Positions 34,866-54,865 of a stretch of 64,000 bases of DNA are shown here, one piece after another. This stretch comes from Escherichia coli. Lineage in GTDB: Bacteria > Pseudomonadota > Gammaproteobacteria > Enterobacterales > Enterobacteriaceae. The notes beneath the pieces were generated by a model. The model saw nothing but the letters and a program-made list of their open reading frames with translations, did no database searches and was not told where the DNA came from. Position numbers and translations under genes: made by a program. Each line of letters starts with the position of its first letter. Within the stretch, counting starts at the first letter, position 1. Location of the stretch: the NCBI RefSeq assembly GCF_044324785.1, contig NZ_CP172127.1. One strand, 5' to 3'.

Positions 34866-35744
34866 TTAGAATAATTTTTTTGACCAGCCGAGCTTGGTGC
34901 TTAATGTATTGAAATAACTGTAATCTTTCGGATGAATCAGATTCAGATGGTAATCACAGCGACGAATCAGGACATCTTCGCCCTCCTGAATCGGCAGTGC
35001 TATCTGGCTGTCGCAACTGATTTCCAGGTCGTTACGGCGATGCGAAAAACGCAGACGGATCGTGCTGCTGCTGTTTATAACCAGTGGTCGTGCTGACAAC
35101 GTATGCGGGAACATGGGCACCAGGGTAATCGCATCCAGAGACGGTGTCAGAATCGGACCTCCCGCTGAGAGGGAATAAGCGGTGGAACCTGTTGGCGTCG
35201 AAATAATCAGGCCATCGGAACGCTGAGAAAACGCAAAGATCTCGTCGATATACACTTCGAACTCAATCATATGCGCCACTTTGCCAGGGTGAAGTACCAC
35301 TTCGTTAATCGCCGTGCTGATGCGTTTCTGGCAATCTTGCTGACAGACTTGCGCTTCCAGCAAAAAACGTTTTTCGCTGATGTAGTGGCCTTCCAGCACA
35401 TCGGCTAACTGTTGCTGGGCGTTATCGGGATCAAGGTCGGTCAGGAAACCCAGGTTGCCACGGTTGATTCCAATAACTTTAATATCGTAACGGGCGAGCG
35501 TGCGCGCCGCGCCCAGCATATTACCGTCGCCGCCAACGACAACCGCGAGATCAGCCTGTTGCCCAATCTCCGCGAGCGTGCCAGTTTTCACATTCTTCAG
35601 TTGCAGTTCGTGAGCGATTTGTTGCTCAACGATGACCTCGTAACCTTTTGTGCACAGCCAGCGGTAGAGCATTTCATGTGTTGTCAGTGCAGTGGGGTGC
35701 CGTGGGTGTCCCACAATGCCAATACACTTGAAATGATTATTCAT
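34866..35744 (-). CDS. nadK: NAD kinase NadK
   Basis: 292 aa with GGDG motif (…[12 protein letters not shown]…). Confidence 0.95.
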
Positions 35745-35833
35745 TTTTCCGAGGTCCTTGTTGCGAAGATTGATGACAATGTGAGTGCTTCCCTTGAAAC
35801 CCTGAAACTGATCCCCATAATAAGCGAAGTTAG

Positions 35834-36460
<627 letters not shown>

Positions 36461-50453: not shown

Positions 50454-51434
50454 ATGGCACAACGAGTACAGCTCACTGCAACGGTGTCCGAAAACCAACT
50501 CGGTCAACGCTTAGATCAGGCTTTGGCCGAAATGTTCCCGGATTATTCACGTTCGCGAATAAAAGAATGGATCCTCGACCAGCGCGTGCTGGTTAACGGC
50601 AAAGTTTGTGATAAGCCGAAAGAAAAAGTATTGGGTGGCGAGCAGGTTGCCATCAACGCTGAGATTGAAGAAGAAGCGCGTTTTGAACCGCAGGATATCC
50701 CGCTGGATATTGTCTATGAAGATGAAGATATCATCGTCATTAATAAACCACGCGACCTGGTGGTACATCCTGGCGCGGGTAACCCGGATGGCACGGTACT
50801 GAATGCGTTGCTTCATTATTATCCGCCCATTGCCGATGTACCGCGTGCGGGCATCGTCCATCGTCTGGATAAAGACACCACCGGCCTGATGGTTGTGGCA
50901 AAAACCGTTCCGGCTCAGACGCGTTTAGTCGAATCTTTGCAACGGCGTGAAATTACTCGTGAGTACGAAGCGGTGGCGATTGGTCATATGACCGCAGGTG
51001 GCACGGTGGACGAGCCAATCAGTCGCCACCCGACCAAACGTACCCATATGGCGGTGCATCCGATGGGCAAACCAGCGGTGACTCACTATCGCATCATGGA
51101 ACACTTCCGTGTGCACACGCGTCTGCGGTTGCGTCTGGAAACTGGACGTACGCACCAGATCCGCGTGCATATGGCCCATATCACTCATCCGCTGGTGGGC
51201 GATCCGGTTTATGGTGGCCGTCCGCGTCCGCCAAAAGGTGCTTCGGAAGCGTTTATCTCCACGCTGCGTAAGTTTGACCGCCAGGCGCTTCATGCAACCA
51301 TGCTGCGTCTTTATCACCCGATCTCCGGTATCGAAATGGAATGGCATGCGCCTATTCCAGAAGATATGGTGGAGCTGATTGAGGTGATGCGCGCCGATTT
51401 CGAAGAGCATAAGGATGAAGTGGACTGGTTATGA
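50454..51434 (+). CDS. rluD: 23S rRNA pseudouridine synthase RluD
   Basis: 326 aa, S4 domain plus RluA-family catalytic core (…HRLDKDTTGL…). Confidence 0.95.
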   Translation: MAQRVQLTATVSENQLGQRLDQALAEMFPDYSRSRIKEWILDQRVLVNGKVCDKPKEKVLGGEQVAINAEIEEEARFEPQDIPLDIVYEDEDIIVINKPRDLVVHPGAGNPDGTVLNALLHYYPPIADVPRAGIVHRLDKDTTGLMVVAKTVPAQTRLVESLQRREITREYEAVAIGHMTAGGTVDEPISRHPTKRTHMAVHPMGKPAVTHYRIMEHFRVHTRLRLRLETGRTHQIRVHMAHITHPLVGDPVYGGRPRPPKGASEAFISTLRKFDRQALHATMLRLYHPISGIEMEWHAPIPEDMVELIEVMRADFEEHKDEVDWL

Positions 51435-52162
51435 GTAAGCTGATTGTCCCGCAGTGGCCGCTGCCAAAAGGTGTTGCGGCCTGTAGCTCTACCCGTATCG
51501 GCGGCGTGAGCTTGCCGCCTTACGACTCTCTCAACCTTGGCGCTCATTGTGGTGATAACCCGGATCACGTTGAGGAGAATCGCAAGCGACTTTTTGCTGC
51601 GGGCAATTTGCCTTCTAAACCGGTCTGGCTTGAGCAGGTACACGGCAAAGATGTGCTTAAGCTTACTGGTGAACCTTATGCCTCAAAACGAGCAGATGCC
51701 TCTTATAGCAATACGCCCGGCACGGTTTGCGCAGTGATGACTGCCGACTGCCTCCCCGTGCTGTTTTGCAATCGAGCGGGAACGGAAGTCGCCGCCGCTC
51801 ATGCTGGCTGGCGTGGACTGTGCGCTGGCGTGTTGGAGGAGACGGTTTCCTGTTTTGCTGATAATCCGGAAAATATTCTCGCCTGGTTAGGGCCGGCAAT
51901 TGGTCCACGCGCGTTTGAAGTGGGGGCGGAGGTTCGCGAGGCGTTTATGGCAGTAGACGCCAAAGCGAGTACAGCTTTCATTCAGCATGGTGATAAGTAT
52001 CTGGCGGATATTTATCTCCTTGCCCGGCAGCGTCTGGCGAACGTCGGTGTCGAACAAATTTTCGGCGGCAACCGTTGTACATATACGGAAAATGAGACTT
52101 TCTTCTCTTATCGTCGCGACAAGACCACTGGTCGTATGGCAAGTTTCATTTGGCTGATATAA
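51431..52162 (+). CDS. yfiH: Purine nucleoside phosphorylase/laccase-domain protein YfiH (PgeF)
   Basis: 243 aa; overlaps the rluD stop by 4 nt. Confidence 0.9.
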   Translation: MSKLIVPQWPLPKGVAACSSTRIGGVSLPPYDSLNLGAHCGDNPDHVEENRKRLFAAGNLPSKPVWLEQVHGKDVLKLTGEPYASKRADASYSNTPGTVCAVMTADCLPVLFCNRAGTEVAAAHAGWRGLCAGVLEETVSCFADNPENILAWLGPAIGPRAFEVGAEVREAFMAVDAKASTAFIQHGDKYLADIYLLARQRLANVGVEQIFGGNRCTYTENETFFSYRRDKTTGRMASFIWLI

Positions 52163-52224
52163 CCTAAAGAATCAAGACGATCCGGTACGCGTGATTTTCT
52201 TTTCACATTAATCTGGTCAATAAC

Positions 52225-52253
52225 CTTGAATAATTGAGGGATGACCTCATTTA
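52225..52253 (+). promoter_or_regulatory. Sigma-32 (heat-shock) promoter of clpB
   Basis: cCTTGAAtaattgagggatgaCCTCATTTA matches the RpoH -35 CTTGAA and -10 CCCCATnT pattern with suitable spacing. Confidence 0.7.
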
Positions 52254-52291
52254 ATCTCCAGTAGCAACTTTGATCCGTTATGGGAGGAGTT

Positions 52292-54865
52292 ATGCGTCTG
52301 GATCGTCTTACTAATAAATTCCAGCTTGCTCTTGCCGATGCCCAATCACTTGCACTCGGGCACGACAACCAATTCATCGAACCACTTCATTTAATGAGCG
52401 CCCTGCTGAATCAGGAAGGGGGTTCGGTTAGTCCTTTATTAACATCCGCTGGCATTAATGCTGGCCAGTTGCGCACAGATATCAATCAGGCATTAAATCG
52501 TTTACCGCAGGTTGAAGGTACTGGTGGTGATGTCCAGCCATCACAGGATCTGGTGCGCGTTCTTAATCTTTGCGACAAGTTGGCGCAAAAACGTGGTGAT
52601 AACTTTATCTCGTCAGAACTGTTCGTTCTGGCGGCACTTGAGTCTCGCGGCACGCTGGCCGACATCCTGAAAGCAGCAGGGGCGACCACCGCCAACATTA
52701 CTCAAGCGATTGAACAAATGCGTGGAGGTGAAAGCGTGAACGATCAAGGTGCTGAAGACCAACGTCAGGCTTTGAAAAAATATACCATCGACCTTACCGA
52801 ACGAGCCGAACAAGGCAAACTCGATCCGGTGATTGGTCGTGATGAAGAAATTCGCCGTACCATTCAGGTGCTGCAACGTCGTACTAAAAATAACCCGGTA
52901 CTGATTGGTGAACCAGGCGTCGGTAAAACTGCCATCGTTGAAGGTCTGGCGCAGCGTATCATCAACGGCGAAGTGCCGGAAGGGTTGAAAGGCCGCCGCG
53001 TACTGGCGCTGGATATGGGCGCGCTGGTGGCTGGGGCGAAATATCGCGGTGAGTTTGAAGAACGTTTAAAAGGCGTACTTAACGATCTTGCTAAACAGGA
53101 AGGCAACGTCATCCTGTTTATCGACGAATTACATACCATGGTCGGCGCGGGTAAAGCCGATGGCGCAATGGACGCCGGAAACATGCTGAAACCGGCGCTG
53201 GCGCGTGGTGAATTGCACTGCGTAGGTGCCACGACGCTTGACGAATATCGCCAGTACATCGAAAAAGATGCTGCGCTGGAGCGTCGTTTCCAGAAAGTGT
53301 TTGTTGCCGAGCCTTCTGTTGAAGACACCATTGCTATTCTGCGTGGCTTAAAAGAACGTTACGAACTGCACCACCATGTGCAAATTACTGACCCGGCAAT
53401 TGTTGCAGCTGCGACGTTGTCTCATCGCTACATTGCTGACCGTCAGCTGCCGGATAAAGCCATCGACCTGATCGATGAAGCAGCATCCAGCATTCGTATG
53501 CAGATTGACTCAAAACCAGAAGAACTCGACCGACTCGATCGTCGTATCATCCAGCTCAAACTGGAACAACAGGCGTTAATGAAAGAGTCTGATGAAGCCA
53601 GTAAAAAACGCCTGGATATGCTCAACGAAGAACTGAGCGACAAAGAACGTCAGTACTCCGAGTTAGAAGAAGAGTGGAAAGCAGAGAAAGCATCGCTTTC
53701 TGGTACACAGACCATTAAAGCGGAACTGGAACAGGCGAAAATCGCTATTGAACAGGCTCGCCGTGTGGGTGACCTGGCGCGGATGTCTGAACTGCAATAC
53801 GGCAAAATCCCGGAACTGGAAAAGCAACTGGAAGCCGCAACGCAGCTCGAAGGCAAAACTATGCGTCTGTTGCGTAATAAAGTGACCGACGCCGAAATTG
53901 CTGAAGTGCTGGCGCGTTGGACGGGGATTCCGGTTTCTCGCATGATGGAAAGCGAGCGCGAAAAACTGCTGCGTATGGAGCAAGAGCTGCACCATCGCGT
54001 TATTGGTCAGAACGAAGCGGTTGATGCGGTATCTAACGCTATTCGTCGTAGCCGTGCGGGGCTGGCGGATCCAAATCGCCCGATTGGTTCATTCCTGTTC
54101 CTCGGCCCAACGGGTGTGGGGAAAACTGAGCTTTGTAAGGCGCTGGCGAACTTTATGTTTGATAGCGACGAGGCGATGGTCCGTATCGATATGTCCGAGT
54201 TTATGGAGAAACACTCGGTGTCTCGTCTGGTTGGTGCGCCTCCGGGATATGTCGGTTATGAAGAAGGTGGCTACCTGACCGAAGCTGTGCGTCGTCGTCC
54301 GTATTCCGTCATCCTGCTGGATGAAGTGGAAAAAGCGCATCCGGATGTCTTCAACATTCTGTTGCAGGTACTGGATGATGGGCGTCTGACTGACGGGCAG
54401 GGGAGAACGGTCGACTTCCGTAATACGGTTGTCATTATGACCTCTAACCTCGGTTCCGATTTGATTCAGGAACGCTTCGGTGAACTGGATTATGCGCACA
54501 TGAAAGAGCTGGTGCTCGGTGTGGTAAGCCATAACTTCCGTCCGGAATTCATTAACCGTATCGATGAAGTGGTGGTCTTCCATCCGCTGGGTGAACAGCA
54601 CATTGCGTCGATTGCGCAGATTCAGTTGAAACGTCTGTATAAACGTCTGGAAGAACGTGGTTATGAAATCCACATTTCTGACGAGGCGCTGAAACTGCTG
54701 AGCGAGAACGGTTACGATCCGGTCTATGGTGCACGTCCTCTGAAACGTGCTATCCAGCAGCAGATCGAAAACCCGCTGGCACAGCAAATACTGTCTGGTG
54801 AATTGGTTCCGGGTAAAGTTATTCGCCTGGAAGTTAATGAAGACCGGATTGTCGCCGTCCAGTAA
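52292..54865 (+). CDS. clpB: Disaggregase chaperone ClpB (Hsp100 AAA+)
   Basis: ORF 52280..54865; start at [18 protein letters not shown] with RBS gggaggag; two AAA+ modules (GEPGVGKT and GPTGVGKT) with a coiled-coil middle domain; 857 aa. Confidence 0.97.

Follow-up and report, generated by a model that had tools for sequence, protein, structure and literature searches.

How a small RNA and a heat-shock promoter can share the short spacer between yfiH and clpB, and what their overlap means for translation of clpB, is the question raised by this locus, which we analyzed within a 64,000-nucleotide stretch of Escherichia coli DNA (the window, to whose first letter all positions refer unless K-12 coordinates are given). 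The first-pass annotation had pointed to a small RNA reported in K-12, ryfD, covering the clpB leader and the start of clpB, had measured the yfiH-clpB spacer at 129 bp, and had noted an internal GTG start yielding a shorter ClpB isoform. Comparison with K-12 bears out all three statements, and places the following features in the region:

51431-52162, plus strand: yfiH (pgeF) coding sequence, a 243-aa open reading frame with a yfiH annotation in K-12 and other E. coli genomes.
52170-52312, plus strand: the 143-nt RyfD small RNA, from K-12 ryfD mapping, Rfam, Term-seq, the published transcription start and the predicted fold.
52282-52294, plus strand: clpB Shine-Dalgarno sequence GGGAGGAG (52282-52289) and ATG (52292-52294), as at the K-12 clpB start.
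52292-54865, plus strand: clpB coding sequence, 857 aa plus stop, from the open reading frame, its translation and annotation.
52736-52738, plus strand: internal GTG start (codon 149) of ClpB80, with GGAGG upstream, from K-12 annotation.

The spacer runs from 52163 to 52291, between the yfiH TAA (52160-52162) and the K-12 clpB ATG at 52292, and the K-12 RefSeq ncRNA ryfD (b4609; 2734153..2734295, minus strand) maps onto 52170-52312 with identical sequence, so that position 52312, where the first-pass annotation had ended its region, is the exact RyfD 3' end. K-12 MG1655 is 100% identical over 52130-52374, and a segment at least 95% identical is present in 5425 of 5426 complete E. coli genomes. 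The sole Rfam match here is RF02768 (Ysr155_RyfD), which aligns over its full model (1-140 of 140) to 52173-52311 on the plus strand with 125.3 bits (E = 2.3e-28; gathering score, 42 bits), and no ligand-sensing motif was found. RyfD lies between yfiH and clpB, in sense orientation to clpB and overlapping its start; the Yersinia context is the same (y0913 > Ysr155 > clpB), and there Ysr155 has been validated by northern blotting. The ClpB80 GTG is preceded by GGAGGTG and coincides with the K-12 RefSeq ClpB80 start (2733729, corresponding to 52736). The region is therefore the gene of the already catalogued RyfD small RNA, overlapping the heat-shock promoter and the translation start of clpB; the K-12 reference annotation contains ryfD, ClpB80 and the sigma-32 promoter of clpB, all of them already known. 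The opposite strand carries an 89-aa open reading frame (52108-52377, minus strand) and has a fold with z = -4.4; an RNA from that strand was dismissed, since nine G.U pairs and the A-to-G substitutions described below can pair on the plus strand only.

Within the limits of RyfD lie the heat-shock promoter and a hairpin whose DNA overlaps it:

52225-52253, plus strand: sigma-32 (RpoH) promoter of clpB, from its match to the consensus, with a start at about 52260 predicted from spacing.
52224-52239, plus strand: internal hairpin CCUUGA-AUAA-UUGAGG of RyfD, from the Rfam consensus structure and the RNAalifold consensus; its DNA overlaps the sigma-32 -35 box.

The -35 box CTTGAA (52225-52230) and the -10 box CCTCATTTA (52245-52253) are separated by 14 nt, inside the 13-15 nt that we required between CTTGAA and CCCCATnT-like boxes, and the pattern CTTGAA-N14-CCYCATNT is matched with zero mismatches (CCTCATTT, 52245-52252), an exact consensus match in agreement with the RpoH promoter initially proposed for the spacer. 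With one mismatch tolerated, 0.16 matches are expected by chance per 64-kb window, and the only other match in this one is the heat-shock promoter of grpE. The sigma-32 dependence of clpB in K-12, as a member of the heat-shock regulon, we take to be established. A base-level start of the sigma-32 clpB transcript was found neither in the literature nor in the Cappable-seq or Kim et al. (2012) supplements. The pattern used to retrieve homologs included part of the hairpin segment at 52224-52239, whose conservation in our sample is therefore not independent evidence.

The published start of RyfD lies well upstream of this promoter. In Table S2 of Kim et al. (2012), three methods place a transcription start at the 5' end annotated for ryfD: two named 5'-triphosphate methods and the profiling of Cho et al. 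Immediately upstream, in the last yfiH codons, we identified a candidate promoter for it:

52136-52163, plus strand: candidate sigma-70 promoter of ryfD, from sequence reading and conservation, its function inferred from the published start.

This candidate comprises a weak -35 box, ATGGCA (52136-52141), a 16-nt spacer and an extended -10 box, TG-A-TATAAC. The extended -10-like element TGATATAAC (52155-52163) overlaps the yfiH stop and ends 7 nt upstream of 52170, within the 6-8 nt expected of a TGnTATAAT-like element, with C as the last -10 base, a position that is normally invariant. Among 59 distinct upstream sequences, 53 have a [TG]ATAA[CT] hexamer in this register, ending 10 nt before the helix arm described below, and 53 have TGn in front of it, a conservation that is partly due to coding because the element overlaps conserved YfiH codons; it is nevertheless kept although the last YfiH residue varies (I, L, R). 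A strict sigma-70 scan did not flag this promoter, because of the C that replaces T at the last -10 position and of the weak -35 box. Given the mapped start at 52170 and the conserved -10-like element, we consider RyfD most likely to be transcribed as a primary RNA from a promoter of its own, with the sigma-32 promoter of clpB nested within the ryfD gene, and on sequence grounds TGATATAAC is likely to be that promoter.

The first-pass annotation had suggested looking by term-seq for a short transcript ending near the clpB start, and published Term-seq data contain one, with a 3' end at K-12 position 2734153 (window position 52312) whose signal is very strong (scores, 2.6e7 and 7.4e7). RyfD stops there at clpB codon 7, 3 nt beyond the closing helix. 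The Rho score of this end is 1.28, which argues against classical Rho dependence and for a weak dependence at most, and the downstream/upstream read ratio is 0.35. A scan for intrinsic terminators found none ending near 52312 and none between yfiH and 52312; the helix is long-range and is followed by the tail UUACUAAU. Cleavage of the 23-bp helix by RNase III was also considered, but the mapped ends lie outside the helix (by 4 nt on the 5' side and 3 nt on the 3' side), a pattern unlike that of a staggered cut inside the helix.

These ends bear directly on what RyfD is. The suggestion that it might be no more than a 5' UTR fragment, processed or attenuated, survives in one respect, in that an RNA initiated upstream does stop at clpB codon 7, and fails in another, in that the coordinates speak against a product of the clpB leader. 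The overlap of RyfD with the leader and the first seven clpB codons, its 3' end inside clpB and the point, discussed in the Y. pestis paper, that short sense-overlapping RNAs found where genes begin often arise by attenuation would all agree with a processed or prematurely terminated fragment of the sigma-32 leader that lacks its own gene. The -35 box at 52225, however, comes 55 nt downstream of the RyfD 5' end (52170), and no transcript from the sigma-32 promoter can contain that end; the 5' end in common with the mRNA that marks attenuation sRNAs is accordingly missing for the sigma-32 clpB leader. With a transcription start mapped at 52170, and with Yersinia RyfD constitutive at both tested temperatures, we consider an origin from the heat-shock leader very improbable indeed. 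An origin from the other side, with RyfD mainly the 3' module of the rluD-yfiH operon, cut as a 3'-UTR RNA from read-through transcripts and using the helix as terminator or exonuclease block, would account for the start of RyfD 8 nt past the yfiH stop, for the lack of an intrinsic terminator between yfiH and 52312, and for position 52312 being the only strong 3' end nearby. Yet the mapping of a start to the RyfD 5' end, in part by 5'-triphosphate enrichment, the correctly spaced -10-like element and the very high Term-seq signal, which suggests a strong dedicated promoter, make this main route improbable, although read-through from rluD-yfiH may contribute a minor share of RyfD.

RyfD is predicted to fold with an MFE of -52 kcal/mol (z = -5.6), whereas a transcript starting at 52260 yields z = +0.35. 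The predicted fold is closed by a 23-bp helix that joins the RyfD 5' end to the clpB AUG and codons 2-6:

52174-52197, plus strand: 5' arm of the closing helix (AAGACGAUCCGG-U-ACGCGUGAUUU), from the minimum-energy fold.
52287-52309, plus strand: 3' arm of the closing helix, from the fold: end of the spacer between Shine-Dalgarno and AUG, the AUG itself and codons 2-6 (CGU CUG GAU CGU CUU).

In this fold the AUG is paired with C52190, G52191 and U52192, and a second helix of 4 bp is predicted in RyfD-type transcripts between the Shine-Dalgarno GGAG (52283-52286) and CUCC (52256-52259). The predicted probability that the AUG is unpaired is 0.02 in the long transcript, as against ~0.5 in an RNA that begins near 52260. 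In the sigma-32 mRNA, too, pairing of the Shine-Dalgarno sequence is predicted to predominate (P unpaired, 0.15), which leaves the AUG and the stability of the helix as the basis of the on/off contrast. Long-range pairs (median, 26) were present in all 106 of the 106 distinct homologs folded. An alternative helix obtained with RNAalifold from a MAFFT alignment, between GACCUCAU and AUGCGUC, was set aside, its columns being invariant and offering no variation to assess; folding of individual sequences was preferred because indels misalign the inner 5' arm.

Sequence variation across the Enterobacterales demonstrates that this helix is maintained. In its 11-pair core, 99.6% of cells are paired across 107 distinct sequences, compared with 36-57% in slid controls. 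The frequent changes in the core 5' arm are all A-to-G or C-to-U and keep the pairing, with pair-keeping transitions at seven of the eight positions where they are possible and pair-breaking ones at none of three; these controls and the direction of substitution were used because the 3' arm columns are invariant, which makes a shuffle control uninformative. The inner arm varies by lineage yet remains complementary (median z = -2.1; 81 distinct arm pairs), and compensatory changes occur at CDS nucleotides 6, 15 and 18, including A-U to U-A and A-U to G-C replacements. On the coding side, the entropy of codons 2-6 is at most 0.08 bit in the 107 distinct Enterobacterales sequences, and from codon 7 onward rises to 1.1-2.3 bits at comparable codons. 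We also collected 98 distinct clpB starts from metagenomes with a degenerate N-terminus pattern that allowed Leu or Phe at residues 3 and 6. In each of the 49 starts that carry the frozen codons, a complementary stretch of 10 nt or more lies upstream, and 48 of 49 starts with other codons lack an arm, a contrast in which codons and arm co-occur along the phylogeny and which does not represent independent events. The sole Enterobacterales lineage to have lost the arm (L041 and L140, the former of Cedecea type) shows synonymous changes, with an arm-less Pantoea MAG (L037) that keeps the frozen codons as a counter-example. Together, these comparative sequence results show strong purifying and compensatory selection on the long helix across the Enterobacterales, which accounts for the otherwise puzzling conservation of synonymous sites where the coding sequence of this major chaperone begins.

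A role in trans is suggested by published work on RyfD. It is a major ProQ ligand in Salmonella, as determined by ProQ co-immunoprecipitation, and TRIC-seq in E. coli detected its contact with the lpp 5' UTR. We located within RyfD a segment that could account for this contact:

52251-52265, plus strand: UUAAUCUCCAGUAGC, complementary to lpp mRNA nucleotides 1-16 and holding the anti-Shine-Dalgarno CUCC (52256-52259).

A local calculation predicts a duplex of 15 bp with one bulge (-21.6 kcal/mol) between the two RNAs; a global RNAduplex calculation was discarded in its favor, as it returned long, loop-ridden duplexes. Each position of UUAAUCUCCAGUAGC, a segment outside the retrieval pattern, is at least 90% conserved in 117 loci, an invariance that may have other causes given its overlap with the sigma-32 -10/start region. 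The lpp 5' end is likewise conserved in Klebsiella, Serratia and Erwinia, where the single change falls on the bulged base, and with both sides invariant covariation is impossible to score. The lpp 5' end of Photorhabdus is changed. Inside RyfD the segment is mostly paired (P unpaired, 0.35). RyfD has further been reported to elute in high-molecular-weight complexes, and its overexpression to cause phenotypes unrelated to heat shock. A ProQ-linked action of RyfD on lpp mRNA is thus plausible.

These observations can be combined in a mechanism that we regard as rather probable, in which transcripts initiated upstream are clamped and ended as RyfD, the sigma-32 mRNA alone is readily translated, and RyfD acts on lpp. 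RNA polymerase with sigma-70 would make RyfD from TGATATAAC, overlapping the yfiH stop. Any transcript begun upstream of the sigma-32 promoter, whether at the ryfD promoter or by rluD-yfiH read-through, would fold into the clamp, closing the clpB start, and would end or be trimmed 3 nt past the helix to leave stable RyfD. Sigma-32 polymerase would start inside ryfD, near 52260, and yield an mRNA devoid of both the 5' arm and the anti-Shine-Dalgarno, so that only heat-shock transcripts would be readily translated into ClpB. Free RyfD would then use the invariant UUAAUCUCCAGUAGC to act in trans on lpp mRNA at its 5' end, with the probable involvement of ProQ. A need to stabilize RyfD and set its ends would by itself select for the same helix, and its control of ClpB synthesis is a prediction from sequence and folding.

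The position of the AUG and the Shine-Dalgarno sequence, both paired ahead of a heat-shock gene, also invites the view that the structure is an RNA thermometer opening the clpB ribosome-binding site at heat-shock temperature. To this we give next to no credence: in silico, the probability that the AUG is unpaired stays at 0.013-0.018 from 30 to 50 °C, with no melting predicted between ~30 and 45 °C, the 23-bp GC-rich helix (~-52 kcal/mol in total) is far more stable than known thermometers, and the sigma-32 promoter already explains heat induction; the folding model thus speaks against it. It is possible, if on balance unlikely, that RyfD is a purely trans-acting, ProQ-associated RNA whose helix provides stability and ends and whose overlap with clpB reflects a crowded 129-bp spacer, without effect on ClpB. 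Binding to ProQ, the contact and complementarity with lpp, the high-molecular-weight complexes and the overexpression phenotypes outside heat shock would all fit, and RNA stability explains the signals of selection on the helix equally well. Against it, no transcript initiated upstream can form the helix without burying the clpB AUG, and between the rluD-yfiH operon and clpB there is no other terminator; some effect in cis on read-through transcripts is therefore hard to avoid.

The clamp mechanism, with its action in both cis and trans, can be extended to a nested switch, which as a whole we hold only tentatively and consider doubtful. Constitutive sigma-70 transcription of the spacer would end up as RyfD, an inert clamp that terminates itself, so that ClpB synthesis would stay strictly dependent on sigma-32, and the sigma-32 start would give the only translatable mRNA. 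Initiation by sigma-32 might also cut RyfD output by occupying the template, and the RyfD 5' arm would be complementary in trans to the start region of the sigma-32 clpB mRNA. If this holds, the lpp seed of RyfD would couple heat-shock status to synthesis of the most abundant envelope lipoprotein. More generally, the analysis provides a testable hypothesis for RyfD, namely that it insulates clpB translation from upstream transcription. The value added here is anatomical: a heat-shock promoter inside an sRNA gene, a helix built from the clpB AUG and codons 2-6, and five codons frozen. The RyfD literature that we examined discusses neither the nesting of the sigma-32 promoter in ryfD nor the burial of the clpB AUG.

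With RyfD/Ysr155 as catalogued (b4609; RF02768), the RNA described here shares locus, length and a consensus structure with a terminal 5'-3' helix; the yfiH-clpB synteny is common to E. coli and Yersinia, and there is no sequence difference from K-12. Its nested promoter fits the consensus (CTTGAA / CCCCATnT) and spacing of sigma-32 promoters such as those of grpE, dnaK and clpB in the form CTTGAA-N14-CCTCATTTA, but unlike the others that of clpB lies wholly inside the ryfD unit, and its -35 box forms part of a RyfD hairpin. SroA and SroG are small RNAs produced from riboswitches and leaders. Like RyfD, such leader or attenuation sRNAs overlap in sense and end at or just inside the downstream gene, but they share their start with the attenuated mRNA, whereas RyfD is initiated separately, ~90 nt before the predicted start of the mRNA. 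In hok mRNA, pairing of the 5' and 3' ends (fbi) keeps the transcript inert until its 3' end is trimmed. The likeness of RyfD to this hok/sok element is one of architecture, a long-range end-to-end helix in a stable and translationally inert transcript, with no sequence relationship and no toxin-antitoxin context; and whereas hok mRNA becomes active when its own 3' end is trimmed, the translatable form in the RyfD/clpB case would come from a separate, internal promoter.

The first-pass annotation had described the yfiH-clpB region as a 129-bp spacer with an RpoH promoter, had placed a small RNA (ryfD) over the clpB leader and start together with an internal GTG start for a shorter ClpB isoform, and had viewed that RNA as a possible processed or attenuated fragment of the clpB leader. 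Features in the region and at grpE are as follows.

51431-52162, plus strand: yfiH open reading frame, TAA stop at 52160-52162
52155-52163, plus strand: extended -10-like element TG-A-TATAAC, ending 7 nt before 52170
16 nt further upstream of that element: weak -35 ATGGCA
52163-52291: yfiH-clpB spacer, 129 bp
52225-52230, plus strand: sigma-32 -35 box CTTGAA, 14 nt before the -10 box
52245-52253, plus strand: sigma-32 -10 box CCTCATTTA, a consensus pattern match
52292, plus strand: clpB ATG start codon, equivalent in position to the K-12 annotated start
34866-35744, minus strand: 292-aa open reading frame divergent from grpE, presumably nadK by its position in K-12
35867-36460, plus strand: grpE, downstream of a second sigma-32-type match

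Of the first-pass views, all but that of a leader fragment were confirmed. The yfiH TAA and the K-12 clpB ATG bound the 129-bp spacer, and a pattern scan of the window for CTTGAA-N14-CCYCATNT found the clpB site with zero mismatches; because this is an exact match against a chance expectation of 0.16 matches per window with one mismatch allowed, the clpB sigma-32 promoter holds beyond chance. The only other match (CTTGAAACCCTGAAACTGATCCCCATAA, 35793-35820, plus strand) lies 47 nt 5' of grpE, a classic heat-shock gene, and is its expected heat-shock promoter. The K-12 RefSeq ncRNA ryfD (b4609; 2734153..2734295, clpB strand) corresponds to 52170..52312, and Rfam family RF02768 (Ysr155_RyfD) matches at full length at 52173-52311 (125.3 bits, gathering score 42). 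The K-12 annotated ClpB80 start (2733729) corresponds to 52736, a GTG at codon 149 with GGAGG just upstream. Three known elements, each already present in reference annotation, make up the locus: RyfD, the sigma-32 promoter of clpB and, farther along, the start of ClpB80. An additional in-frame ATG at 52280, 12 nt 5' of the annotated clpB start (ATG GGA GGA GTT ATG), overlaps the clpB Shine-Dalgarno sequence; ORF prediction begins there, and the K-12 annotation at 52292.

Of 5426 complete E. coli genomes, 5425 carry the segment at no less than 95% identity. Positions 52130-52374, which cover the spacer and clpB up to its base 83, show 0 mismatches to K-12 MG1655, whereas the neighbouring yfiH coding sequence (51826-52129) shows 15 differences, so that conservation is higher in the non-coding spacer than in the gene beside it.

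The view of RyfD as a fragment of the sigma-32 clpB leader did not stand. RyfD begins at 52170, 55 nt before the sigma-32 -35 box, and therefore no sigma-32 transcript can contain its 5' end. We likewise rejected RyfD as a leader-derived attenuation RNA, a class that shares its start with the mRNA, since RyfD has no start in common with the clpB sigma-32 mRNA. In Kim et al. (2012, Table S2), three mapping methods place a transcription start at the 5' end annotated for ryfD, and the entry lacks the asterisks with which these authors mark starts within or upstream of an sRNA. The extended -10-like element overlaps the last yfiH codons and stop codon (CTG ATA TAA C). In 53 of 59 distinct upstream sequences [TG]ATAA[CT] keeps its register, and in 53 it is preceded by TGn; the final residue of YfiH is variable (Ile from ATA, Leu from TTA/CTA, Arg from CGA/AGA). 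Because the hexamer nucleotides are retained though this residue changes, the pattern points to selection on the DNA element and not on the YfiH protein. A strict sigma-70 scan made no promoter call here, missing the element because of the C at its last -10 position and its weak -35; we thus infer the TGATATAAC element as the candidate ryfD promoter, supported by the published start mapping.

At the other end, the Term-seq supplementary tables of Adams et al. (2021) place a 3' end exactly at 2734153 (minus strand; very high scores, 2.6e7 and 7.4e7), with a Rho score of 1.28 and a downstream/upstream read ratio of 0.35 untreated and 0.45 with bicyclomycin. Our scan found no canonical intrinsic terminator at the RyfD 3' end, and by the published Rho data it is not clearly Rho-dependent. 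Northern blots in Y. pestis and Y. pseudotuberculosis validated a 138-nt Ysr155/RyfD between y0913 and clpB, expressed independently of temperature and of hfq. In Salmonella, RyfD ranks among the most abundant ligands of ProQ. It elutes in high-molecular-weight fractions, with no sign that it carries an ORF, and reduces swarming and biofilm formation when overexpressed. No mechanistic link between RyfD and clpB was found in the RyfD literature searched.

The predicted fold of the 143-nt RyfD has an energy of -52 kcal/mol, compared with -31 ± 3.7 in shuffled sequences (z = -5.6), while a transcript from ~52260 is unremarkable (z = +0.35). With 9 of its 48 pairs being G.U, the fold is plus-strand specific. 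Its predicted 23-bp closing helix, also present as the terminal helix of the Rfam consensus structure, pairs 52174-52185 and 52187-52197 with 52287-52309, a 3' arm made up of the AUG (opposite C52190, G52191 and U52192), the bases just 5' of it, and clpB codons 2-6. On this helix stacks a predicted pairing of CUCC (52256-59) with the Shine-Dalgarno GGAG (52283-86). The predicted probability that the AUG is unpaired is 0.02 in a RyfD-type transcript versus ~0.5 in one from ~52260. In both transcripts the Shine-Dalgarno sequence has a low predicted probability of being unpaired (0.13 and 0.15), but its partners in the short one differ and are much weaker. An RNA thermometer is unlikely, as the closing helix did not melt in silico up to 50 °C. 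A terminator-like hairpin (UGAGG-GAUGA-CCUCA followed by UUUAAUCUCC; 52235-52259, plus strand) was flagged inside RyfD, between the sigma-32 -35 and -10 boxes, a possible end point for a shorter RyfD species of about 85 nt.

Homologous loci were retrieved from GTDB species genomes with a pattern comprising the promoter core only, leaving out both arms, which yielded 120 loci (Escherichia, Enterobacter, Klebsiella, Citrobacter, Pantoea, Erwinia, Serratia, Yersinia, Rahnella and others), 117 of them aligned. The core 11 pairs form in 99.6% of alignment cells, versus 36-57% when the partner is slid by 1-3 columns. Double changes are impossible in this set because the 3' arm is invariant. Variation in the 5' arm is almost solely A->G or C->U, both of which keep the pair; such transitions occur at 7 of 8 possible positions, and pair-breaking ones (G->A, U->C) at 0 of 3 (Fisher's exact p ~0.02, calculated by hand). 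The inner 5' arm is lineage-specific (ACGCGUGAUU in E. coli, GCGCAUGAC in Yersinia, ACGUAAC and others) and still complementary to the Shine-Dalgarno-AUG stretch (median z = -2.1 over 81 distinct arm pairs, 64% below -1.64). End-to-end long-range pairs formed in all 106 distinct homologues folded (median 26). Together, these comparative sequence data show that the RyfD closing helix is real and under selection. In two metagenome contigs with non-Enterobacterales clpB (promoter CTTGAAAGCAATCCCGGCATCCCCATCTT), folding prediction pairs clpB AUGCGUCU with GGACGCAU, which lies in the conserved G-R-M codons of a yfiH-like gene upstream; this may be chance, since ATGCG and CGCAT are near-palindromic, or else an older version of the RyfD long-range pairing.

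Across 107 distinct sequences, clpB codons 2-6 (CGT CTG GAT CGT CTT) show at most 0.08 bit of codon entropy, identical amino acids further downstream show 0.8-2.3 bits, and the boundary falls exactly at codon 7, the end of the helix. We scanned metagenomes for clpB starts with a degenerate N-terminus pattern ending KFQ, allowing Leu/Phe at residues 3 and 6. The E. coli codons occur in 49 of 98 distinct starts, all 49 with an upstream complement of at least 10 nt, and 48 of the 49 starts with other codons (1-7 differences) lack the arm motif, although this contrast tracks phylogeny and the 98 starts are not 98 independent events. Codons 2-6 are thus free to vary without the arm. Among the exceptions, two loci (L215, L219) with CUA at codon 6 have an arm starting with U instead of A (A-U to U-A), L183 has CGC at codons 2 and 5, each opposite G instead of A (A-U to G-C), and in L023 and L241 codon 2 is CGC, facing G; as judged from sequence, these are compensatory changes. 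The arm has been lost in a Cedecea-like lineage (L041, an uncultured Cedecea sp., and L140, from a metagenome), with GAC and CGC changes. In this natural loss-of-arm variant, the changes in codons 4-5 are synonymous, unrelated sequence replaces the RyfD 5' arm and TATAAC element after the yfiH stop, and the sigma-32 promoter and clpB start are retained. In one Pantoea metagenome-assembled genome (L037) the codons are still the frozen ones although the arm is missing, perhaps because it was lost recently.

A 2025 TRIC-seq preprint reports contact of RyfD with the lpp 5' UTR, in agreement with a predicted duplex between RyfD 52251-52265 (UUAAUCUCCAGUAGC) and lpp mRNA nt 1-16 (GCUACAUGGAGAUUAA) of 15 bp with one bulge (-21.6 kcal/mol). 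Each base of this segment, which lies outside the retrieval pattern, is at least 90% conserved over 117 loci; Klebsiella, Serratia and Erwinia have an identical lpp 5' end, and the sole change in the complementary stretch in Photorhabdus (L247) is the bulged A (GCUACAUGG to GCUACUUGG). The lpp leader and promoter are nearly identical from E. coli to Photorhabdus. These data are consistent with a conserved RyfD-lpp interaction, falling short of proof because neither partner varies, conservation extends over the whole lpp leader, and the segment overlaps the sigma-32 -10/start region and the anti-Shine-Dalgarno sequence and is predicted to be mostly paired inside RyfD (mean unpaired probability 0.35).

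RyfD identity, its published ends, its structure and the conservation of that structure are established. In the most likely reading, transcripts from 52170, or read-through from rluD-yfiH, would fold into a clamp burying the clpB AUG, and would end or be trimmed 3 nt past the helix. The sigma-32 polymerase would initiate inside the RyfD gene, and because of this start its mRNA would lack the 5' arm and CUCC. The rluD (50454-51434) and yfiH reading frames overlap by 4 bases (51431-51434), consistent with a translationally coupled operon; a terminator scan found no terminator between this operon and the RyfD helix. That the locus acts as a nested sigma-70/sigma-32 switch, keeping ClpB synthesis insulated and tying heat-shock status to lpp by way of RyfD, is a tentative and rather unlikely proposal. 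What is added here is the nested arrangement of two promoters, that of ryfD putative, and the evidence for a freezing of clpB codons 2-6 by the RyfD terminal helix, overall a modest refinement of a known element. RyfD works somewhat like hok mRNA, which end-to-end pairing keeps inert, the analogy being functional only.
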